Shown here: piece after piece, positions 25,067-50,724 of the stretch
Numbering within the stretch: the first letter of the stretch is position 1
How the letters are laid out: each line of letters starts with the position of its first letter
From: Acidobacteriota bacterium
GTDB taxonomy: Bacteria; Acidobacteriota; CAIWXX01
NCBI GenBank assembly: GCA_040755995.1
Contig: JBFMAF010000031.1
Location: forward strand, 64,001-128,000
Length of the DNA stretch: 64,000 nucleotides
Direction of reading: 5' to 3'
Translations under genes and position numbers: made by a program
Notes under the pieces: generated by a model
Told to the model about the DNA's origin: nothing
The model's database searches: none
The model's input: only the letters and a program-made list of their open reading frames with translations

Positions 25067-27310
<2,244 letters not shown>

Positions 27311-31163: not shown

Positions 31164-31637
31164 TCACTCCTCCAGGAGCTCCTCCGGCGTGCAAATGACC
31201 GGAGGCCCGTATCCATGCCGGCGGCACGCTTCAACGATCCGCTGGCGACTGACGGCATTGGCAATATGCTTGAGATTCCAGGTGATGAGATAGTCGACGC
31301 CGTGAACAGCAGCTATCGCTACATGGATGGCTTCCGCCGCGAATTCAGATGGGATAGTGTGATCGTCGACCAGGGCCTGCGCGAGAGTGACGACATCGGA
31401 TGTAGTCTCCAGCATTGGGACCTGTTCGATGAGCTTGGCCCTCTCGCTCGCAGCCTGTTGGTCCCCATCGCGCGCCTCCTCCACCACGAGTTGAGAAATG
31501 AGCAGGTCATGGTGCTCTCGACGGCTATCCCACCATTCGTTCGTGATCCGCTGATGGGCTGCGACTAGCAGGTCACGGCTGGGCCGGGCCGCCCGGTAGC
31601 TTATCACAGTGGTTTCAATGTAGGCTTTGGGTTTCAT
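31164..31637 (-). CDS. PIN-domain (VapC-like) protein
   Basis: YIETTVISY, S.LVVEE...GD, A.HVAIA...G.DYLITWNLKHIAN, ICTPEEL motifs. Confidence 0.9.
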   Translation of the reverse strand: MKPKAYIETTVISYRAARPSRDLLVAAHQRITNEWWDSRREHHDLLISQLVVEEARDGDQQAASERAKLIEQVPMLETTSDVVTLAQALVDDHTIPSEFAAEAIHVAIAAVHGVDYLITWNLKHIANAVSRQRIVEACRRHGYGPPVICTPEELLEE

Positions 31638-31770: not shown

Positions 31771-34700
31771 CTACGGGCCGGCGTGTCTTTTCAGCGGCAG
31801 CGGCCGGGCGGCGTCGGTGACGGCGTCGATCTTCACCGCATAGCTCGTCTTCTGCGCGATGTCTTCATCCCTGACGATGTGAATGTCGAGGAGGCCGCCG
31901 GTGCGGTACCCTGTTCTGATGTGGTTCATCTCGTCGAGGCAGAGACTCCACCCGTCGAACCAGATCGTGAGCTCGCGCAGCTGCTGTTCGGTTCCGCCGA
32001 AGTGGACGAGCAGATCTATGTCGCTCTGCGGGCCCGCCGTCGCGTTCTTGGTGCTCCCGATCAGATACAGCCCCTTGACGCCGAAGCGCTCGGGATCGAG
32101 CTGGGAGGCGATGTGTTCCGCCATCTTGAGGCGCCACGCCCAGAAGTTTTCCGGCTGCCTGTCCGCGTTCTCTCTCAGGGTCGCGGGGCTTTCGAGGCGC
32201 GACGGCTCGCGGACGAGGTATCCGACTGCCTCATCGAGATCCGCGTTCATGAGCACGCGCAGCAGATGACCCTCCGAGCTCTTCGGTACATCGATCACCT
32301 TGACAACCTGCGCGAGGTGAGCGAACTCGGGGAGGAGCTCCGGCAGCACGTTGGTTGCACGCTGGAAGAACGCGTCGTTGAAGACGACTCCAGTGTCATC
32401 CGGGTAGAGCGGCAGGTAGCGAATCCGGGCCTCGACCAGGTCCTGGAAGAAGTGCGTGCCGAAGGACAGATCCGGAATGTAGTTGCCCTTCTGGCGCGCC
32501 ACCTCGATCAGGATCGCCGTGTTCGTGATGTCGGCGTAGGAGACCTTGACGCCGAGCTTGATGTCGCCACGGCTGCCCCATCTGCCCGGACCCATCAGGA
32601 TGAAACGGCGGCTCGGAAGCAGCTTGTTGAGCTTGCCGATAGCCCGCGCGACTGAAAGCAGGTCGGCCCGGTCGGCCAGTTGATCGTAGCTCTGGGGGTC
32701 GACATAGACAATGTGACTGATATCGGGAATACGCCCATTCGAAACGTACCGGCTCGCGGTGAATACGATCTTCTCCTTCGGGATGTCGTGAGGGATCGGC
32801 GCCGGCGCGGAATCCTCGAGGTAGCTCTGGGGGCGGCATTGCAAGAGGTAAAAGGCGCTTCCGTCGGAAGCGAATTCGATGTCCACGGGCGTCCCAAGCT
32901 GCTTCTCGAGCAGCTCCAGAAGTGCCTTGATCTTGGCCACGAACGGGGTTCCGGTGACAAGTCCTTCGAATGTCACCACCAGGTCTTCATTCTCGAAATC
33001 GATACCTGTCGGAAGAGGCTTGCGCATGTGGTAGCCGTCGAAGACGGATACGATCTTGTCGACCGCCGGGTACTTCTCACCATACCTTCTCAGCAGATCC
33101 CTGACTTCGATAGTCTCGAACCGGTTGGTTCTGAGATTGATCACGTCGATTCTCTTCGGAGCGTAACGCGCGACCTCATCGGGAGTCACATTGACCCGGA
33201 AGCCTATCTGTCCGGGGGCGAGCAACACCGGGAAGTCATCGCTCACTCTGTCGACCGCCCTGGTGCCCAACCCCGGGACGAGTCTCAGGAGCCCGTCCTG
33301 CTGGCGGATTCGAGGGGACCACCGGAACTCGTTTCGGCTGAAGGCGACGCCGGCGTAGGCAGGCATGAAGTAATCGCCGATGCGCGAGCCGACGACTTCC
33401 TGAACCATGATCCCCATCTCTTCGGCGAAATCGACGAGTCCGCGTTCGTGCCTGTAGCTGATCGGGTCGGGGCCGAACGTGGACGCGTAGACCTCCGCGA
33501 TGGCGTCGATCAGCGCATCGAGCCGTTCCTGTTTGCTCCCCTGGTTCGCCAGGAAGAGACTCTTGTATTTCCCCGAGAAGGACGACCCCATGCGGTCCTC
33601 GAGCAGACTGGAGCTCCGTACGATGAGAGGCAGATCCTTGAACTCGTCGAGGACCATGGAGAGCCCCTGGACCAGCTCGGTGGGCAGCGGACTGTTCTTG
33701 AATGACTGCACGATGTGCGGATACTCCAGCCGCACCTGGTGGATGTCCTTGTACTTCTGCTCGACCACCTCATTCAGGTTGTTGTAGGTGAGGAAATTGA
33801 GCAGCTCGTCGGTGGCGATGTACCATGTCCGCGGCACCTTGATGTCCGCCAGGTGCGAATGCTCGCCGGAGGCACTCTCGACGACCCGCTGCGCCAGGAA
33901 CAGGCCGCTCCCCTTGCCCCCAAGCCTGCCCTGGCTCTCCGGCGAGAAGACCAGGTGATTGAGGATCTCGTAGAAATCCTCGATCTCGATGAACTCCTTC
34001 GCCGTTCGCAGATACTGGGGCTGGCTCGACAGAAACCGCCGGATCAGCGACACCTGGACCCCCCGCCTGCTCGGCGGCGGAAGCTCCACACCCTCCGATG
34101 CGATGAGACGATAGCGCCGCAGTGCCTCGATGATGCGGACCAGAGGGAGGTTCTTGTTAATGACCTGGACGAGGAAGCTCAGCCGGTCTTCCTGTATCCA
34201 GCTCTGTATGTTGGAAAGTATCTGCTCCTCGGAAAGATGCTTCGCCGCGATGCGGAAAACCTCGTCGCTCAGCCTCTCCGTGAACGGCTGCGGGCTTTTC
34301 TGGTACGGCCGGTTGTCTTCCAACACAAGGCTCTCGTCGCGTGGGCCGGAGCCCGACGTGGACCTCTGCAGCAGCGTCTCGGCCTCCTCGGTCCCGCTCC
34401 AGCAGAGGAAGTTCAGCATGCGCCGGGATATGTTGAGGAAGAGGTTGCGGTCCGTCTGGCGCAACAGGTTCAGCGCTACACGCCACTCTTCGATTCTATG
34501 CTCCGCGACTCCGCTCCTCGCCGTCTGGAACACATGCTTCATGCGGTGGTACATGATGTAGTGGCCGAGCCGGTCCGCGATGGTATTCAGAAGCTTGGTT
34601 TCTTCCTTCAGGAACGGCCCGTGGTCGGCCTTCGGCATCTCTCTGGTGTAGTACACGCTTATTCGACCGACGGCCTTCTCCTGCAGCGTGACATCCGCGT

Positions 34701-34950
34701 ATTGGACCCACGGCGTTTCCTGGAAGCCCGGGGATGCGTGCGAGTACTCCTCGATTTCGACTCTGGCCACACAGACGTCAGGGTACTGCCATCCGGGTGG
34801 AATCGCATCTACTGTGCCGGCGCAGATCTCACCGAAGTCGGCGTCGGGTTTGCTGAGGAGCTCCTCGATCCTGTACAGACAGTTGAGCTCCTTGGCCCTC
34901 TCCGAGAGGAACCAGATCAGCTCCTTTGTCGTCTTCTCCTGGCTAGTCAT
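31771..34950 (-). CDS. GAF-like + PEP-synthase-N-type ATP-grasp + C-terminal nucleotidyltransferase fusion protein
   Basis: ERAKELNCLY...IPPGWQYP...GPFL.EE sensor; LGGKG, PLIVRSSSLLED, FSGKY.S, VDIEFA, LLQCRP; C-terminal YLIGSTKNATAGPQSDIDL (GS...DxD). Confidence 0.85.
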   Translation of the reverse strand: MTSQEKTTKELIWFLSERAKELNCLYRIEELLSKPDADFGEICAGTVDAIPPGWQYPDVCVARVEIEEYSHASPGFQETPWVQYADVTLQEKAVGRISVYYTREMPKADHGPFLKEETKLLNTIADRLGHYIMYHRMKHVFQTARSGVAEHRIEEWRVALNLLRQTDRNLFLNISRRMLNFLCWSGTEEAETLLQRSTSGSGPRDESLVLEDNRPYQKSPQPFTERLSDEVFRIAAKHLSEEQILSNIQSWIQEDRLSFLVQVINKNLPLVRIIEALRRYRLIASEGVELPPPSRRGVQVSLIRRFLSSQPQYLRTAKEFIEIEDFYEILNHLVFSPESQGRLGGKGSGLFLAQRVVESASGEHSHLADIKVPRTWYIATDELLNFLTYNNLNEVVEQKYKDIHQVRLEYPHIVQSFKNSPLPTELVQGLSMVLDEFKDLPLIVRSSSLLEDRMGSSFSGKYKSLFLANQGSKQERLDALIDAIAEVYASTFGPDPISYRHERGLVDFAEEMGIMVQEVVGSRIGDYFMPAYAGVAFSRNEFRWSPRIRQQDGLLRLVPGLGTRAVDRVSDDFPVLLAPGQIGFRVNVTPDEVARYAPKRIDVINLRTNRFETIEVRDLLRRYGEKYPAVDKIVSVFDGYHMRKPLPTGIDFENEDLVVTFEGLVTGTPFVAKIKALLELLEKQLGTPVDIEFASDGSAFYLLQCRPQSYLEDSAPAPIPHDIPKEKIVFTASRYVSNGRIPDISHIVYVDPQSYDQLADRADLLSVARAIGKLNKLLPSRRFILMGPGRWGSRGDIKLGVKVSYADITNTAILIEVARQKGNYIPDLSFGTHFFQDLVEARIRYLPLYPDDTGVVFNDAFFQRATNVLPELLPEFAHLAQVVKVIDVPKSSEGHLLRVLMNADLDEAVGYLVREPSRLESPATLRENADRQPENFWAWRLKMAEHIASQLDPERFGVKGLYLIGSTKNATAGPQSDIDLLVHFGGTEQQLRELTIWFDGWSLCLDEMNHIRTGYRTGGLLDIHIVRDEDIAQKTSYAVKIDAVTDAARPLPLKRHAGP

Positions 34951-36703
34951 GGGTGATGACTCCAAATCCTCTCCGCCCGTCGACCCGCACTTCCAGCGGC
35001 GACGGCAAGCGCACATGGCATGTCCATCCAGTCTCCTCCACAACCTCTTGCCGGCGCAGCCATTCCCAATCGATCCGGTATTGGCCCTCATGCGGAACGG
35101 AGAAATACAGGACCTGGAAGCTGGTGATATTGTGGAAGAAATGCGAGCCCTGGCTGAGCAGGAAGTTCATCTGCGGCAGCATCGACTCGACTATCACCTT
35201 GGCTCCCGAGATCTGTCCGAAATTGACCGGTATCCCGGCCGACGGGTCGGAGGTCCCCCAGCGCCCGAAACCGATGAGTACGTACGGCGCGCGTGCCGAG
35301 ATGAGTCGTCGATTCATGACCTCCAGCTCTTCGGCTATCTCGTGGGTCGCTCCCGGTACGAACGACTCCGGTTTCACGTAGATGACGTCGCGGATGGTGT
35401 CGATCCTGCCGTTTCCCATCGCAGACTGTGATGCGACCAGCGCGCGGCTTCCCGAGAGCTCGTCCGCCGTCACGTCCACTGTGCCCTGCGACACCACCAT
35501 CGGGCGGACCTGGAGGAATCCGAACCTGGCCGGCGTCCCGCGGTCGTTGTCCAGCGTCACCGCGAACTCGATCTCGACCATGCTGCCGAGGGTTTCTCCG
35601 CAGGAGCGCAGGAGAGCCTTGAGCAGCTCGTTCAAGGGGATCTCATCCAGCTTCAGGATCGGCGCGAAGTTGACCAGCCTGGCGCCACGCTCGGCAATGC
35701 CGATCACCAGCCGCTCGTCGTGCGGCCTGTAGGTCGACGCAATAAACGTCAAGCTCCCATCCTGCTCGGCATCATCGAGATGATACCTCATCATGTACTC
35801 GACTTCCTTGACGGGATCGTACACGGGGGGCGGGCCCATGTTGATCCCCCAGAAGTCCCTCTGGCTCTGCTCGAGAAGTTCGTCCAGGGTGTTGTACGGA
35901 GGGTTCGACTGCGGGTAGGCGGGGGAGTACGTCCACGCCGTCCCGTCGTCAACGATCATCTTGCCGAGGCCCAGCGCAAGGTCGATGACCCCGTCTTCCG
36001 GCTTCGCGTGCCCGAGCGGGTAGAAGTTGTAGCTCCGCGCGACCCCGGAGATGTGCGGATAGAAGCGTTCCTCATGCCGGCACCCGACGACCTCCTGGAC
36101 GATCACAGCCATCTTGTCGCCCGTATCTCCGTGCCTGGTCGCCTGTAGGTAGTTCCGGGCGCCTTTGAAGTACGTAGACGCGTACACGTACTTGACCGCC
36201 TCTATCAACCGGCGGAAACGAATATCCGTGTCGTGCTGGTTGTTCGGGATCATCTTGGTCTTGTAGACGCTTGCGAAGGGCTCGAACATGGCGTCTTCGA
36301 GCATGCTGGATGAGCGGACCGCGAGCGGAGTGTGGACCTGCGCGATCAGAGCGCGGAGATCACCAACTAGCTGCGCGGGAAGGGCGGCTCTCTGGAATGC
36401 GAGCGCCTTCTGGTCGTCGCGCAGATCCGAGCCCGCAACATCGAAGAGATCGTTTTGCTTCATGAAGAGATCGAAGAAATCGGTGCCGATGACCGTGAGG
36501 GTAGGGATGTTGACGATCATCCGAGGCTCGAACAGCGGCGCGATTCGCTTCTCCAACAGATCCTTCATCCTCGCCAGCCCCTGCGCCTTGCCCCCGATCG
36601 AACCGCCGCCGATGCGCGTGAACCTCTCCCGCCCAGTGAAGAACTGCCGATCAAAGGCCTGAAGCGTAGGGCTCTGACTGACGATTCTATTTCCGCCGTT
36701 CAT
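34943..36703 (-). CDS. PEP-synthase/PPDK N-terminal-type ATP-grasp protein
   Basis: IGGKAQGL, PLAVRSSSMLED, MAVIVQEVVG, VEIEFAV, FLQVRP, GRWGT, GSHFF. 8 bp overlap with the downstream gene. Confidence 0.85.
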   Translation of the reverse strand: MNGGNRIVSQSPTLQAFDRQFFTGRERFTRIGGGSIGGKAQGLARMKDLLEKRIAPLFEPRMIVNIPTLTVIGTDFFDLFMKQNDLFDVAGSDLRDDQKALAFQRAALPAQLVGDLRALIAQVHTPLAVRSSSMLEDAMFEPFASVYKTKMIPNNQHDTDIRFRRLIEAVKYVYASTYFKGARNYLQATRHGDTGDKMAVIVQEVVGCRHEERFYPHISGVARSYNFYPLGHAKPEDGVIDLALGLGKMIVDDGTAWTYSPAYPQSNPPYNTLDELLEQSQRDFWGINMGPPPVYDPVKEVEYMMRYHLDDAEQDGSLTFIASTYRPHDERLVIGIAERGARLVNFAPILKLDEIPLNELLKALLRSCGETLGSMVEIEFAVTLDNDRGTPARFGFLQVRPMVVSQGTVDVTADELSGSRALVASQSAMGNGRIDTIRDVIYVKPESFVPGATHEIAEELEVMNRRLISARAPYVLIGFGRWGTSDPSAGIPVNFGQISGAKVIVESMLPQMNFLLSQGSHFFHNITSFQVLYFSVPHEGQYRIDWEWLRRQEVVEETGWTCHVRLPSPLEVRVDGRRGFGVITHD

Positions 36704-36745
36704 GGTGAATCGTCCGACTCCGCTTCGGACTCTCCTGGAAAACCC

Positions 36746-36843
36746 CCGTCAGTTCGCATGTCTGATTCCGCACTCCGCACTCCGCATTCGGCAAGCCACC
36801 GTCAGGTCGCAGGTCTGATTCCGCACTCCGCATTCCGCATTCG
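36746..36843. repeat. Tandem 45-bp direct repeat containing TCCGCAY heptamers
   Basis: Copies at 36746-36790 and 36799-36843, 42/45 identical by manual comparison. Confidence 0.85.
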
Positions 36844-36845
36844 CC

Positions 36846-38132
36846 TCACACCCACCCTCGCTCGCGACATGCCTGGGCGACACGGGAAACGGCGATAACA
36901 TTGGCTGCGTCCCGCATGTACAGGCCCTTCTTCTTTGCCAGCTCACGGACCGCATGAAAGGCCGACGTTATCTTCAGATCGAGCTTGCCGAACACTTCAT
37001 CCTGTTCCCAGAAGTAGTTCGCGTTGCCCTGCACCTGCTCGAAGTAGCTGCAGATGACGCCGCCGGAATTGGCGAGGATGTCCGGGATCAGGAACAGACC
37101 CCGATCGTGGATGACTCGATCGGCCTCGGGAGTAGTCGGGCCGTTGGCCCCCTCGATGATCAACTTCACCCTGCTGGACATGCGTCCCACGTTGTCAGCG
37201 GTGATCTGCTGCTCGATGGCCGCAGGAATGAGAATGTCGGCGTCCTGTTCGATCCATTGCTCCCCCGCCAGCACTTCGTAGCCCAGACCAGCCGCTTTCG
37301 CCCTGTCGATGCCGCCGAAGCGGTCGGTGATACCGGCCAGCTCGTCGTAGTCGATTCCTTCGGGCTTCCGGAACGCGTATGAGGTCTGGTCGCTCTGGTC
37401 CCAGCAAGAAACGCAGACCACCTTGCCCCCGATCTGCTGGTAGAGACGAACGGCGTGCTGGGCGACGTGACCGAATCCCTGAACGCTAGCCGCCGTCGAC
37501 TCGGGGGCAAGGCCGAGCTCCTTGAGGGCCTCGCGCGCGGCGAAGACGACGCCGAAGCCAGCGGCTTCGCGCCGCCCCTGCGACCCGCCGAGGCTCACGG
37601 GCTTACCCGTGATGAATCCGGGGCGCTTCTCGCCCTGAATCGTCTCGAACTCGTCGAGCATCCACAGCATGTACTGGGGACTGGTCATGAGATCTGGTGC
37701 CGCGACGTCGATGGAAGGGCCCAGATCCCTTGAAAGGCGACGCACCCATCCCCGGCAGACCCGCTCCTGCTCCCACAGCGACAGGTTATGCGGGTCGCAA
37801 ACGACACCGCCATTGCTGCCGCCCAAAGGAATGTCCACCAGCGCACATTCCCAGGTCATCCACATGGCCATGGCCCGGACGGTGTCGAGGGTCTCCTGCG
37901 GGTGGAATCGGATACCGCCCTTGGCGGGGCCCCTTGAGTCGTTGTGGACAACGCGAAATCCCCTGAAGATTCGTGGGCGGCCGTCGTCCATGCGCACCGG
38001 GATCGTGAACTGGTGCTCTCGCACGGGAGTGCGGAGCATCTCGCGGGTCACCTCATCTAGTCCAAGCAAGTCCAGCGTCTTGTCGAGCTGCGATTGGGCC
38101 ATGTCAAATGGCGTGGATGTCCTGGCGGCCAT
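36846..38132 (-). CDS. Glu/Leu/Phe/Val dehydrogenase homologue with substituted catalytic lysines
   Basis: GPAKGGIRFHP, APD, TGKP, EGANGP, PDILANSGGV present, but MTWEC (family MTWKC) and GGSNGG (family GGGKGG). GAAAGG RBS. Confidence 0.88.
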   Translation of the reverse strand: MAARTSTPFDMAQSQLDKTLDLLGLDEVTREMLRTPVREHQFTIPVRMDDGRPRIFRGFRVVHNDSRGPAKGGIRFHPQETLDTVRAMAMWMTWECALVDIPLGGSNGGVVCDPHNLSLWEQERVCRGWVRRLSRDLGPSIDVAAPDLMTSPQYMLWMLDEFETIQGEKRPGFITGKPVSLGGSQGRREAAGFGVVFAAREALKELGLAPESTAASVQGFGHVAQHAVRLYQQIGGKVVCVSCWDQSDQTSYAFRKPEGIDYDELAGITDRFGGIDRAKAAGLGYEVLAGEQWIEQDADILIPAAIEQQITADNVGRMSSRVKLIIEGANGPTTPEADRVIHDRGLFLIPDILANSGGVICSYFEQVQGNANYFWEQDEVFGKLDLKITSAFHAVRELAKKKGLYMRDAANVIAVSRVAQACRERGWV

Positions 38133-38179: not shown

Positions 38180-38231
38180 GAACACGACCTGTCGTGTTCC
38201 AGACGATAGCGCCAGCCCCTGCAATTGTCAA
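38180..38231 (-). promoter_or_regulatory. Promoter of the GDH paralogue with a perfect palindromic operator candidate
   Basis: Minus strand TTGACA (38231-38226) -17 bp- TATCGT. GAACACGAC-CT-GTCGTGTTC at 38180-38199. Confidence 0.6.
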
Positions 38232-38397
38232 AGAAAAGATGGCCTCGGGAGTCTTGGTTTTTTATCAGAAGCCAAACGAAAACCAAATAATTTCCAAACA
38301 AAACTCGCGTATGTATGCGGATTGTCCTTATGAAGGGGCTTGCGCGCGTAGTGATTCGATCCACATTCCTCATTTACAAATCCTAAGGAGTGATTGC

Positions 38398-39759
38398 ATG
38401 AACAGTTTCGTCTCCGATTTCATGGCCGCGGTGAAAGCCAAGAACCCGGCCGAACCCGAGTTCCACCAGGCTGTATTCGAAGTCGTCAGCTCAGTGGCAC
38501 TCGTGATCGAGAAGAACCCCGAGTACCGCAAGGCGAAGATCATGGAACGCATCGCCGAGCCGGAGCGCGTGATCATGTTCCGCGTTCCCTGGATGGACGA
38601 CGCCGGCGAGATCCATGTCAACCGTGGCTACCGCATCGAAATGAGCAGCGCCATCGGGCCGTACAAGGGCGGGCTGCGCTTCCACCCGACAGTGACGTTG
38701 GGCATCCTGAAGTTCCTGGCATACGAGCAGGTCTTCAAGAACAGCCTGACGGGACTCCCGATGGGTGGCGGAAAAGGAGGCTGCGATTTTGACCCTAAGG
38801 GCAAGAGCGACTACGAAGTGATGCGCCTCTGCCAGAGCTTCATGAATGAGCTCTTCAGACACATCGGGCCCGATACGGACGTGCCCGCGGGAGACATCGG
38901 CGTGGGAGGGCGAGAGATAGGGTACCTGTTCGGCCAGTACAAGAAGCTCCGCAACGAGTTCACCGGCGTCCTCACCGGCAAGGGCCTGGATTGGGGCGGC
39001 TCGCTAATCCGCCCGGAAGCCACAGGCTACGGCGCCACCTACTTCGCAGCAGAGATGCTCGGCACGCGAAACCAGACTCTGCAGGGCAAGACCTGCCTCG
39101 TGTCCGGAAGCGGCAACGTCGCCCAATACACGGTCGAGAAGATCAACCAGCTCGGCGGAAGAGCTGTGACACTCTCTGATTCGAACGGCTATATCTACGA
39201 TCCGGAGGGAATCGACGCCAAGAAGCTCGAGTTCGTCATGGATCTCAAGAACATCCGGCGCGGCAGAATCAAGGAGTATACCGACAAGTACAAGAGCGCC
39301 ACGTTCATCCCGCTGAAGCCGGGCCTGGACTACAACCCGCTCTGGGACCACAAGGCGGACTGTGCCTTCCCCAGCGCGACGCAGAACGAGATCAACGGGA
39401 AGGACGCCGAACACCTGGTCAAGAACGGCGTCTACGTCGTCGCCGAAGGCGCCAACATGCCGACGACACCTGAGGGCATCGAGGTTTTCCTGAATGCCAA
39501 GATCCTCTACGGGCCGGGCAAGGCCGCCAACGCCGGCGGTGTAGCCACCTCCGGTCTCGAAATGTCCCAGAACAGCCTGCGCCTGAGCTGGACTCGCGAA
39601 GAGGTTGACAGCCGGTTGCACCAGATAATGAAGAACATCCACAAGACCTGTGTGGAGGCCGCCGCCGCCTATGGCACGCCAGGCAACTACGTCAACGGGG
39701 CCAACATCGGTGGGTTCCTCAAGGTCGCCAGGGCCATGATGGACCAGGGCCTCGTCTAG
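38398..39759 (+). CDS. gdhA: NADP-specific glutamate dehydrogenase
   Basis: EPEFHQAV, GPYKGGLRFHP, EQVFKNSL, GGGKGG, DVPAGDIG, RPEATGYG, SGSGNVA. AAGGAG RBS. Confidence 0.96.
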   Translation: MNSFVSDFMAAVKAKNPAEPEFHQAVFEVVSSVALVIEKNPEYRKAKIMERIAEPERVIMFRVPWMDDAGEIHVNRGYRIEMSSAIGPYKGGLRFHPTVTLGILKFLAYEQVFKNSLTGLPMGGGKGGCDFDPKGKSDYEVMRLCQSFMNELFRHIGPDTDVPAGDIGVGGREIGYLFGQYKKLRNEFTGVLTGKGLDWGGSLIRPEATGYGATYFAAEMLGTRNQTLQGKTCLVSGSGNVAQYTVEKINQLGGRAVTLSDSNGYIYDPEGIDAKKLEFVMDLKNIRRGRIKEYTDKYKSATFIPLKPGLDYNPLWDHKADCAFPSATQNEINGKDAEHLVKNGVYVVAEGANMPTTPEGIEVFLNAKILYGPGKAANAGGVATSGLEMSQNSLRLSWTREEVDSRLHQIMKNIHKTCVEAAAAYGTPGNYVNGANIGGFLKVARAMMDQGLV

Positions 39760-47171: not shown

Positions 47172-47697
47172 AATCCAGGAGGCGATCCGGCTGCTGAGGG
47201 AGATCTCGGAGGAGAGCGAGCGGTCGAGGACCGGCGCTCCGTGGGAGGCCCAGCGGCCTCCCTTTCCCGCGGCACGAGATGCTGAAGATGTCGAAATAGA
47301 AAGACGCGGGGTCGATGAGAGACACCTGGGCGAAATGGACGAAGTGCGAACCGCTGTGATGCAGCTCGCGCACGAGGGGGCGGTATTGGCGCCGGCACCG
47401 CAGGCCCCGACCTCAGATACTGTGACCAGCGAGCCCGCGCCGGAGACGCGCCAGGAAGCGCCGGCGGGTACTCCGCTGGAGGCTCCTTTCCCGGCCATTG
47501 CCGCGACCGGGTCGGCCGTCGAGCCGGTAGCTGATCGACCTGCTGCCGATGAGAAGGCAGTCGATGAGTCGCACGAGGGCGAGCCGCAGCCGCCCTGGGT
47601 CGGAATGGTTGAGGCCCGTGCTGAATCGGCAGTCCAGTCGCCTACGTGGCCAGCCTTTGAAGAGGGGCCTCCCGGCGGTACAGCCGAGGTGTATTAG
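47146..47697 (+). CDS. Acidic Pro/Ala/Glu-rich hypothetical protein overlapping parA
   Basis: GAAGGAGG RBS, 26 bp overlap with the parA end, short N-terminal helix then low complexity. Confidence 0.6.
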   Translation: MSPLKDSSEIQEAIRLLREISEESERSRTGAPWEAQRPPFPAARDAEDVEIERRGVDERHLGEMDEVRTAVMQLAHEGAVLAPAPQAPTSDTVTSEPAPETRQEAPAGTPLEAPFPAIAATGSAVEPVADRPAADEKAVDESHEGEPQPPWVGMVEARAESAVQSPTWPAFEEGPPGGTAEVY

Positions 47698-47818
47698 CAG
47701 GTATCTCAGGACCGATGGTTCGACCGCGGAGCCTCGAAGTGTGGCGCGCCGATGGTGTCAGGCGGCCGCCCGGACGGCGTACTTATGGGGGCGAGAGAAG
47801 GTGCTTGCGGAGCGTAGG

Positions 47819-48664
47819 ATGTACAAGCGTGTAATCGAAGGGGTGCGCGCGACGTTTCGGAGGCGGCATCCGATCGCCGATGGTAGAGGTACGCTGGTGT
47901 TGATCGGTGGGGCCGAAGACCGGAGTCGAAGCGGCCAGGTGATGAGCCGGCTCGTCGAGATCGCCAGGCCGAAGAGCGTCGCGGTCATTCCCACCGCCAC
48001 CTCGCAGCCGTCCGAGCTCGGGCGTGAGTATCGGAACGCGTTCGTCGACCTGGGAGTCGGCGAGGTCACGGTCCTGCAGGTCCAACACCCTGATCAGGCC
48101 GACCGCCAGGAGAATCTGCAGGCGGTCGAGGAGGCAGAGCTGATCTTCTTCACTGGCGGGAACCAGTTCAAGCTGGTCGAGGCGCTGAAGGGTACGGCGT
48201 TGCTCGACAGGGTTTTCAAGAAATACCACGAGGGTGCCACCATTGCGGGCACCAGCGCCGGCGCTGCCTCGGCCGGAGAGTTCATGATCGCCAACGGTGA
48301 CAATCACGGATTGGACAAGGGATCTGTCCGCTGCGAGAAGGGATTCGGTTTCCTGGAAAAAACCGTAGTGGACACGCACTTTGTCGAGCGCGGCCGGATT
48401 CACCGGCTGGCGCAGGTGCTGTCGAGCGGCATCGTCCGGCGAGGAATCGGACTCGCGGAGGACACAGCGGTCGTGGTTCACGCTGGAGCGTCGTTCGACG
48501 TCATCGGTGCGGGCTTCGTGACTGTGTTGAACAGCGAGGCGCTCTCGTTCTCCAACTATGATCAGGTCGGCGACCGCGAGCGACTCGCCGTCGATGGGAT
48601 CCGCGTCGGCTTCCTGCCACCAGGCGTGTCCTTCGACTTGACGGCCTGGTCGATCACATCGTGA
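47819..48664 (+). CDS. cphB: Cyanophycinase
   Basis: IGGAED, VIPTA, FTGGNQ, GTSAGA, DTHF.ERGR..RL, G.GL.EDT motifs. Confidence 0.93.
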   Translation: MYKRVIEGVRATFRRRHPIADGRGTLVLIGGAEDRSRSGQVMSRLVEIARPKSVAVIPTATSQPSELGREYRNAFVDLGVGEVTVLQVQHPDQADRQENLQAVEEAELIFFTGGNQFKLVEALKGTALLDRVFKKYHEGATIAGTSAGAASAGEFMIANGDNHGLDKGSVRCEKGFGFLEKTVVDTHFVERGRIHRLAQVLSSGIVRRGIGLAEDTAVVVHAGASFDVIGAGFVTVLNSEALSFSNYDQVGDRERLAVDGIRVGFLPPGVSFDLTAWSITS

Positions 48665-48837
48665 GACGCGGAGACGCGAGGAAATTGGGCCACGTTGGGG
48701 TCTCCGCGTCCGCTGCGAGGCCCGCCCCTTCGGCCTCGCCGCCGCTAAGACTCGGCGAGCCGCGTCAACACCCGGCCACCTCGACCCGTGGCTATCAGCC
48801 ATTCCAGCCCCTATAGTATATTTTCGATGGAGGTTGC

Positions 48838-50724
48838 ATGAGATACTACGAAATACGGAATCTTCGCTCGTTCTCCGGCCCGAACTACTACCTCGATTCA
48901 CCGGCGATAGTCTTCGACTTGGATATCGATCATGGCGGCCCCTTCGAGGCTTTGAGGGAAAGCGCCGTGGATCGCTTCCCTGTGCTCCGTTCCAGAACCA
49001 TCGAAACCCCGGCGGATCTTTTCGCGTTGACGCTGCTACAGGTCATCAGGCTCGACCTCGACCTCTTCGTCAGCAAATCCGCGGTCCACGTGATCGACGG
49101 AGCGGCCCGGATCGCAGCTGAGTACATCGATGAGGGTGTGGCCAAGGAGGCCGCGTATCTGGTCAGAGACTGGCTGTCCGCAGTCGCCGAGAAGAAGCCG
49201 TTCGACTTCGAGGGCAACATGCAAGGACTCCAGACCGATTTCGACAAGACGTTGTATGGCGGCCCGACTCTTTACTCCCTCCTCGAGGCCGCGATGAAGC
49301 GCTCGATACCGGTGCACTACCTGTTCGAAGAGAATCAGTTCCAGTGGGGATACGGCAAGAAACAGCTCCGGGGCCGATCCACCACCTTCCACACCGACGG
49401 CATCAAAGACACCGAATTCACCACCTACAAGGACATGGTCAAGGATTTCCTGCAGATGTGCGGATTCCCGACGCCCATCGGCAGGAACTGCTACTCGCTG
49501 AAGGAGGCTCTGGCGCAGGCGGAGCAGCTCGGCTTTCCGGTTGTCGTGAAGCCGGTGGCCGGGCACAAGGGGCAGGGCGTCACGACGAACGTCCGTTCGA
49601 TGGACGAGCTCCGCAGCGCCTACCAGGCCGCCGAGCAATCGGCGCGGCAGGAGAAGGGGCACAATGACGGCGTAATCGTCGAGCAACAGATCGAGGGGAC
49701 CGACCACCGCCTCCTGGCTGTGAACGGCAAGTTCCTCGCCGCCCTCCAGCGCATCCCAGCATATGTTGACGGCAACGGCCACGACACGATCGAAACGTTG
49801 ATCGAGCGCGAGAACGCGACGTCGGCCCGCGTCGACAATGCGCGATCGCCGCTTTGCAAGATCAAGACAGACGAGAATCTGATCGAGTTCCTGAAGCTAC
49901 AGCGGCTCTCGCTCCGCTCCGTGCCCAAGCCGGGCGAGCGCATCTTCCTGCGCCGCGTCGCGAATATCTCAGCCGGCGGTGTCTCGATCAACGTCACCAG
50001 CAAGGTCCACCCGAAGAACGTGAAACTCGTCGAAGACATCGCTAGCTTCTTCAACCTGACGGCTCTCGGCATCGACGTGCTCGCGGGCGACATCAGCAAG
50101 CCGTGGACCGACGGGGATTTCGGAATCATCGAGATCAACGCCGCGCCCGGCGTCTTCATGCACCTCACGCCCGCAATCGGAGACCCGCTCGACATCCCCG
50201 CGGCGATCTTGCGATCGCACTTCCCCAAAGACGGGTCCGAGCGAATACCCATCGTTACCGGCAACAGGCTCTCGCTCAATTTCAGCCAGATGCTCTTCCG
50301 TGAGCTCCGCGCGATCCGGCCGGGCATTCAATTCGCGAGCCTCACGGAAGAGGGAATCCTTTTCAACGGCGAGTTCTTCTTCAAGAACCCGGTGCACGCG
50401 CAGAACGTCAAGATCATGCTTCGCCACCCGAAGCTCGATCTGGCCCTGTTCACACATCGCCGCGACGACATACTGGATTCGGGGATGCTCCATCGGGGGG
50501 CCGATCTCGTCATCCTGGAGGCTCCTGATAAAGAAGAGGAGGTCCTGAGACGAGACCTGCTGCCGGGAGGCATCCTCGTGGAGCTTGGAGGGCCGGAGAT
50601 CGTGATCACACGTGACGGACAGGCGCTGGGCTCTCGACCAATCGCCGGCGGCGAAGACAAGGACGGCGCGCTGCTCGACGCCTTGAAGCCGGCGTTGCCC
50701 GGGCTCGTCTCCAAGTACGACTGA
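48838..50724 (+). CDS. cphA2: CphA2-like cyanophycin synthetase (ATP-grasp intact, Mur-ligase domain vestigial)
   Basis: 628 aa. YGGPT.Y.LL, VKPVAGHKGQGV, DHRLL, ANISAGG, IEINAAPG present. No GTNGKT P-loop (VTGNR) and no DYAHN. Confidence 0.82.
   Translation: MRYYEIRNLRSFSGPNYYLDSPAIVFDLDIDHGGPFEALRESAVDRFPVLRSRTIETPADLFALTLLQVIRLDLDLFVSKSAVHVIDGAARIAAEYIDEGVAKEAAYLVRDWLSAVAEKKPFDFEGNMQGLQTDFDKTLYGGPTLYSLLEAAMKRSIPVHYLFEENQFQWGYGKKQLRGRSTTFHTDGIKDTEFTTYKDMVKDFLQMCGFPTPIGRNCYSLKEALAQAEQLGFPVVVKPVAGHKGQGVTTNVRSMDELRSAYQAAEQSARQEKGHNDGVIVEQQIEGTDHRLLAVNGKFLAALQRIPAYVDGNGHDTIETLIERENATSARVDNARSPLCKIKTDENLIEFLKLQRLSLRSVPKPGERIFLRRVANISAGGVSINVTSKVHPKNVKLVEDIASFFNLTALGIDVLAGDISKPWTDGDFGIIEINAAPGVFMHLTPAIGDPLDIPAAILRSHFPKDGSERIPIVTGNRLSLNFSQMLFRELRAIRPGIQFASLTEEGILFNGEFFFKNPVHAQNVKIMLRHPKLDLALFTHRRDDILDSGMLHRGADLVILEAPDKEEEVLRRDLLPGGILVELGGPEIVITRDGQALGSRPIAGGEDKDGALLDALKPALPGLVSKYD

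Follow-up and report, generated by a model that had tools for sequence, protein, structure and literature searches.

Thermus is, to our knowledge, the only source of inactive glutamate dehydrogenase (GDH) homologues for which a role in regulation has been demonstrated, and there they partner a sister GDH. In the available text of PMC9570180 and bioRxiv 2025.10.31.685773, Thermus thermophilus GdhA is described as the inactive regulatory subunit of a GdhA/GdhB hetero-hexamer, and the former source gives the leucine site as R135, D166 and a C-terminal Arg, the Asp being numbered one residue off the chain index. The available part of bioRxiv 10.1101/2025.10.31.685773 further describes T. thermophilus ADLP (TT_C1082), an alanine dehydrogenase homologue without the catalytic lysine that senses NAD+ and inhibits a neighbouring CoA transferase, on the evidence of assays and cryo-EM. 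VadK (Rv1127c) is a PPDK derivative presented in the accessible portion of PMC13400623 as a regulatory kinase of metabolic enzymes. For active GDHs, the accessible sections of PMC11096400 place Lys69, Lys93, Lys105, Arg187 and Ser351 in the ligand pocket, with the reaction water beside Lys105; those of PMC12001156 agree, and the review PMC13179614, in the part available, counts the equivalent lysines as catalytically important.

We analysed a window of 64,000 nucleotides from an Acidobacteriota bacterium, in which an earlier note had marked a full-length GDH pseudoenzyme. The open reading frame 36846-38132 (minus strand) runs from an ATG at 38132 to a TGA at 36846, over 1287 nt and 428 codons with zero internal stops. 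An RBS-like GAAAGGAAA lies directly 5' of the ATG, and a sigma-70-like promoter (TTGACA-17-TATCGT; 38203..38231, minus strand; 10/12 matches) is conserved in relatives, so that the intact frame, RBS and promoter described earlier are all borne out. The scan of the region counted four sigma-70-like sites, where shuffled sequence gave 0.7, and the heptamer CTTGACA (-35) is found again in 19 of the 23 upstream regions aligned. A promoter-like site for a divergent NADP-GDH gene (38262..38291, plus strand) lies within an AT-rich block that is conserved in relatives. This block (~38250-38300, upstream of the NADP-GDH; near TTGTTAT-AATTTATTTGG-TTTT-GTTTT-GATTTTAATAAAAAA) is kept in most lysine-less loci, and is likely to be a divergent promoter and possibly also a regulator site. 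Both promoter-like sites are flanked by a 15-nt inverted repeat (38209-38223 / 38331-38345; 87% complementary, 107 nt apart). Between the stop codon and the start of the next gene, two tandem 53-bp copies, 89% alike, occupy 36737-36842; within them is a TCCGCA(C/T)T repeat, the core pattern of which was counted 44 times across the genome, and they are probably a dispersed intergenic repeat.

The encoded 428-aa protein carries both ELFV dehydrogenase domains (Pfam PF02812, 159.7 bits; PF00208, 215.2 bits) and scores 424 bits against NCBIfam equivalog models, below the cut-off of 750. Its closest solved relatives in a PDB sequence search are archaeal-type hexameric GDHs. An AlphaFold model built from 142 sequences reached a pLDDT of 95.9 and superimposed on the GDH-NADP-Glu structure 8xcr with a TM score of 0.93 and an rmsd of 1.6 A. 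By its domains and two-domain fold the protein belongs to the ELFV / hexameric GDH fold, and it is probably hexameric. We assign it to a subfamily, labelled as such by us, whose mark is a C-W-D-Q insertion that follows the Rossmann strand.

Alignment to Thermococcus profundus GDH (1euz) equates K71 with Lys69, E95 with Lys93, N107 with Lys105, D147 with Asp145, R187 with Arg187, H222 with Asn222 and S362 with Ser351. Two of the three pocket lysines are replaced: N107 (codon AAT, 37812..37814, in GGSNGG) stands where active GDHs have the catalytic lysine of GG(G/A/S)KGG, and E95 (codon GAA, 37848..37850, in MTWEC) where they have the equivalent of Lys93, these and all following codons being on the minus strand. 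We take Lys105 to be essential to GDH, its loss abolishing activity, and Lys93 and Lys69 to bind the alpha- and gamma-carboxylate, respectively. The two lysine-site motifs, REAAG (T191A; codon 37560-37562) and GFGHV (N222H; codon 37467-37469) are present as claimed before, together with a further change, A356S (ANSGG), and each substitution is a single-base change. What is retained is one half of the pocket, namely K71 (37920..37922), R187 (37572-37574) and S362 (37047-37049), so that the equivalents of Lys69, Arg187, Ser351 and Asp145 and the GxGxxG/A loop (GFGHVA) of active GDHs are still in place. From the clostridial GDH literature we assume that K71, R187 and S362 bind the side-chain carboxylate and D147 the amine. 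Among the best 119 other matches (~70% identity), K95, N222 and A356 are kept in all 119 and K107 in 108, and the changes thus fall on near-invariant sites. The pattern of K95E, T191A and N222H suggests that ligand preference may be weakened or shifted in this copy.

Loss of K107 is shared by many relatives. A metagenome scan for the lysine-less motif, which asked for N, H or Y at position 107, returned 117 stretches, of which 64 were GDH genes; the 53 without a GDH match were left out, and a profile search added further sequences. Pattern matches in genome G369, where there was no GDH match, and a third one in G053, which looks like chance, were also set aside. After deduplication the collection held 252 distinct sequences, 99 lysine-less and 153 intact, numbers that reflect the search design and not natural frequencies. 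None of the conclusions depends on G025, an unpublished genome. The 99 lysine-less sequences carry N (37), H (29), Y (24), T (4), S (2), M (2) or F (1) at position 107, and with seven different residues there no substitute catalyst is conserved; the altered substrate specificity that the earlier note had offered as an alternative is accordingly the weaker option. The same 99 sequences rule out a private mutation or a sequencing error as the full account for K107. K95E is rare, with four further cases among the 64 metagenome loci (L064, L117, L122, L160), and N222H was observed only in the 36846-38132 copy. The two lysine changes, paired in the earlier note, are therefore not a package: loss of K107 is family-wide, and K95E is an occasional addition. 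In two partial lysine-less copies, L090 and L147, K71 has also become Thr, and in L147 K95 has become Gln. A free tree without the trait columns (55 selected rows) implied at least five changes of lysine state, but a topology uniting every lysine-less row with P0077 in one clade was not rejected (p-AU 0.42). A test on the origin of K95E gave a p-AU of 0.072, and this change is likely to be of independent origin.

Substitution rates indicate that the lysine-less family is maintained. Across 80 lysine-less pairs from 44 loci (dS 0.02-1.2), dN/dS had a median of 0.084 and a maximum of 0.32; close pairs lay mostly at 0.05-0.13, resembling the closest intact pairs (0.05-0.13), the 13 closest non-identical genome-derived pairs at 0.06-0.19, and the pair L064-L117, two full-length K95E relatives, at 0.091. 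K71, R75, E189, E327, N355, S362 and the loop glycines are kept in 111/111 lysine-less rows and R187 in 107/111 (rows including duplicates), and Q62, D147 (to E), T191, T333, V359 and T360 are relaxed. T191 and N222 are invariant in 158/158 intact rows but relaxed in lysine-less ones. With the catalytic residue absent, the fold intact and purifying selection at family level, the protein is a pseudoenzyme by sequence definition, and the idea that it has been kept by selection is supported. On these sequences, purifying selection is established for the lysine-less family and, only indirectly, for the 36846-38132 copy, whose nearest relative lies at a dS of about 0.95 or more, too far for a lineage-specific dN/dS.

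The gene heads a run of three on the minus strand. It is followed by PK586 (34943..36703; 586 aa), a PPDK_N ATP-grasp protein whose C-terminal SQG[ST]H motif is conserved, and by a second PPDK_N protein, PK1059 (31771..34950; 1059 aa), whose ATG overlaps the end of PK586 and whose C-terminus gives a weak nucleotidyltransferase match (PF01909, 27.5 bits, cut-off 21). On the other side lies, divergently, an NADP-specific GDH of the GdhA type (38398..39759, plus strand; 453 aa; NF006929 741.7 bits, cut-off 536) with its three lysines intact. Of 44 lysine-less loci, 43 have a PPDK_N gene directly downstream, as do 21 of 26 lysine-bearing ones, and the NADP-GDH is divergently placed in 25 of 31 lysine-less loci versus none of 25 lysine-bearing ones; the lysine-bearing set is dominated by one Acidobacteriota group, and the counts cover long loci, short ones being left out, among them L009 (G003), whose intact copy does have the NADP-GDH placed divergently. 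All 21 lysine-less genomes searched have a PK586 orthologue next to the lysine-less gene; these genomes are kin, so that such counts overstate independence. The suspected link to the NADP-GDH and ATP-grasp genes is thus upheld by conserved gene order. The SQG[ST]H motif occurs in 45/45 aligned PK586 copies, and by analogy with dikinases we take its histidine to be a candidate phospho-histidine. The PPDK_N neighbours score far below family cut-offs, and their best PDB sequence hits, to chains annotated as phosphoenolpyruvate synthase, are weak (5hv6, 5fbs; E about 1e-5); searches of Pfam and of PDB sequences gave no match for the C-terminal domain of PK586.

Several further features were seen in the window. 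Downstream of PK1059, a 157-aa ORF (31164-31637, minus strand) looks PIN-domain-like by eye, with no Pfam match, and a 747-aa ORF (25067-27310, minus strand) resembles, also by eye, a membrane-bound ion-translocating pyrophosphatase. A cyanophycinase-like ORF (47549-48664) precedes an ATP-grasp ORF resembling cyanophycin synthetase (48838-50724), both recognized by eye, and this cyanophycin-type pair (47549-50724) would be another link to nitrogen storage. Glutamate synthase matches are present in the source genome and do not separate the explanations considered below.

A predicted complex of the lysine-less GDH with PK586 scored 0.48 (runs 0.48, 0.41, 0.51), and the best of three controls 0.00. 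The runs share at least 87% of contacts, with a partner pLDDT of at least 82, and recall of a solved complex is unlikely, since a PK586 profile found no close relative among PDB sequences. In calibration 116 of 157 solved pairs and 2 of 215 mismatched ones attained the mark, but only 18 of the solved pairs did so with scores of 0.60 or less, as did both mismatches. A score in the range of 0.48 is rated as more often wrong than right unless the pairing is likely beforehand, and the prediction gives no interface. The prediction lends weak support to a physical complex, and of the proteins considered PK586 is most likely to be the partner.

The parallel with Thermus GdhA/GdhB drawn in the earlier note fits poorly. 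The source genome does contain an intact paralogue, on contig C41, with 63% identity to the lysine-less protein and no gaps; it belongs to a second module (G000:C41:88844-93078; L179:8845-13091), in which an intact GDH of the same subfamily is followed by a 917-aa PPDK_N protein. The paralogue on C41, and further intact ones in G041, G042 and G043, at first seemed to point to an arrangement like that in Thermus. The picture changed once matched codons were read in 201 genomes sampled from a single class of this phylum: of 23 genomes with a lysine-less copy, five also had a lysine-bearing match, and in the other 18 the pattern found no close intact paralogue. A protein search of those 18 genomes (2 + 16), which are 85-94% complete and include three single-contig assemblies, found no second copy above 45% identity, and 12 of the 16 contained only a distant intact GDH (35-40% identity). 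Two further loci, L064 and G209:C14 (L233), hold a lysine-less GDH, two PPDK_N genes and an intact paralogue in one same-strand cluster. In L028:2848-4032 (G031) and L027:3-1067 (G014), a degenerate GDH paralogue that keeps the three lysines adjoins an intact GDH and shows altered motifs (KGGIVF, SRD or ARD for APD, HGFRNIG); judged by these sequences, such copies are possibly the closer analogue of Thermus GdhA. By chained alignments the leucine-site Arg of Thermus corresponds to G128, a position that is Gly in 255 of 269 rows, and the other leucine-site positions, D160 and R425, are invariant. The chain 3aoe_E (4 chains), which we take to be probably Thermus GdhA, is a weaker match to the protein (244 bits) than are archaeal GDHs (380 bits).

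These data bear on several explanations. We favour, with moderate confidence, the view that the protein has no catalytic role but binds a ligand as a subunit of a previously undescribed GDH/ATP-grasp module, in the manner of the NAD-sensing ADLP of Thermus. A reading that we consider rather unlikely makes it a direct regulatory partner of the divergent NADP-GDH, in a mixed oligomer or as an inhibitor, with the ATP-grasp genes as upstream controllers. The NADP-GDH co-occurs with the lysine-less GDH almost as tightly as does PK586 and could be the real partner: besides its divergent position, peculiar to lysine-less loci in the gene-order count, it lies on the same contig in all 16 protein-searched lysine-less genomes, divergently in 15, and is the only other GDH found in G452, G565 and G376. 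However, the two proteins share only 31-32% identity and belong to different GDH subfamilies, they are encoded on opposite strands from separate promoter-like sites while PK586 shares the strand, and the divergent gene is absent from 6 of the 31 loci. A Thermus-type hetero-hexamer, in which the inactive subunit would pair with a close intact paralogue, here the C41 copy, seems very improbable and is disfavoured as a general role. Mixed hexamers may form where both proteins exist, as in the source genome, G041-G043, the five class-sample genomes and the single clusters of G209 and L064, but such a paralogue is missing by pattern and by protein search from 18 of 23 lysine-less genomes, the only intact GDH of 12 of the 16 is distant, and the leucine-site arginine has given way to glycine.

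That the protein is an active oxidoreductase of altered chemistry or substrate, such as an imine/amine reaction for which no catalytic lysine is needed, would fit the conservation of the fold, the GxGxxG loop, D/E147, E327 and N355, and K95E reverses the charge at a pocket position as a specificity switch would. Against it stand the seven different residues at position 107, the relaxation of T191 and N222 on the cofactor side and the genes examined around lysine-less GDHs, among which no substrate-pathway gene is conserved nearby; we regard it as distinctly improbable. There is, finally, only a slim chance that the family is functional but the 36846-38132 copy is decaying, or that K95E and N222H are assembly errors. 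This copy has a long terminal branch (0.29-0.32) and departs from the family at 18 of 216 conserved sites, the most among 120 sequences compared; N222H is found here only, the GC3 of the gene is slightly lower (0.79 vs 0.81-0.88 for six other window genes), a close relative for a dN/dS of its own is lacking, every substitution involves one base only, and the assembly has no listed sequencing runs. Yet of the 157 sites that lysine-less relatives conserve it departs at 3 (median 1), and of the 260 variable ones at 97 (median 70), a contrast that argues against decay. There is no indel relative to the intact paralogue, promoter and RBS are kept, K95E recurs in other loci under selection, and K107N is backed by relatives.

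In the favoured explanation, a folded GDH that no longer turns over glutamate would have been kept to bind ligands as a non-catalytic subunit of the GDH/PPDK_N module whose first gene encodes it. A second, non-catalytic job in such modules may already fall to the lysine-bearing subfamily members, because they too precede PPDK_N genes, and the catalytic job could have been dropped where an NADP-GDH supplies catalysis. The lysine-less protein would bind glutamate, 2-oxoglutarate or NAD(P)(H), closure of its cleft would signal to the ATP-grasp protein, and nitrogen flux would then be adjusted by the ATP-grasp pair, with the NADP-GDH as its most plausible target. A more specific version, which we offer as a speculation more probably wrong than right, would make it the sensory subunit of an undescribed bacterial nitrogen-control system, docking on a PPDK-derived ATP-grasp kinase, with SQG[ST]H as phospho-carrier, which would modify the NADP-GDH; the rare K95E copies, with the one studied here among them, would be retuned from glutamate to an amine free of the alpha-carboxylate, such as 4-aminobutyrate, an idea proposed because K71, R187, S362 and D147 stay while the alpha-carboxylate lysine is charge-reversed.

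A widespread family annotated as ordinary GDH thus appears to have dropped catalysis while staying tied to uncharacterised ATP-grasp proteins, which suggests that the GDH fold can serve a non-catalytic role and that a layer of control at the carbon-nitrogen junction has gone unstudied. Metabolic reconstructions would then overcount catabolic GDH in lysine-less genomes. Versions of this one protein that lack the lysine, keep it or carry K95E are 63-70% identical and can be compared cleanly. A search of the open-access literature, with subscription journals outside its scope, found no description of the lysine-less GDH family or of the GDH/PPDK_N module. New here are the K95E double change, the test across genomes for a close paralogue that is active, and the weak signal for a complex with PK586.

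Compared with the GDHs of T. profundus and Pyrococcus furiosus (1euz, 8xcr, 1gtm), the protein shares the fold (TM 0.93), about 44% identity and the equivalents of Lys69, Arg187, Ser351, Asp145, Asn319 and Asn344, and differs in Lys93 to Glu, Lys105 to Asn, Asn222 to His and the C-W-D-Q insertion. Like Thermus GdhA, whose role is non-catalytic according to the text available, it is a full-length GDH homologue; unlike it, lysine-less GDHs occur without a close active paralogue in most of the genomes tested, are linked to PPDK_N genes and have Gly at the leucine-site Arg, and no close active, GdhB-like paralogue is adjacent to the gene studied here, the copy in the source genome being the one on C41. 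Its neighbours carry PPDK_N as do PPDK-derived proteins (rifampin phosphotransferase / PEP synthase, VadK), but they fall below the family cut-offs, the C-terminal domain of PK586 has no Pfam or PDB sequence match, and its phospho-histidine is a candidate. ADLP, as far as the accessible portion of its report describes it, belongs to the alanine dehydrogenase family and not to ELFV, and has a different partner. Both are nevertheless amino-acid dehydrogenase homologues in which the catalytic lysine has given way to varied residues and most ligand-binding residues are kept. ADLP regulates an unrelated enzyme encoded next door, as the lysine-less GDH may do, and by this analogy it is the best functional parallel for the lysine-less GDH.
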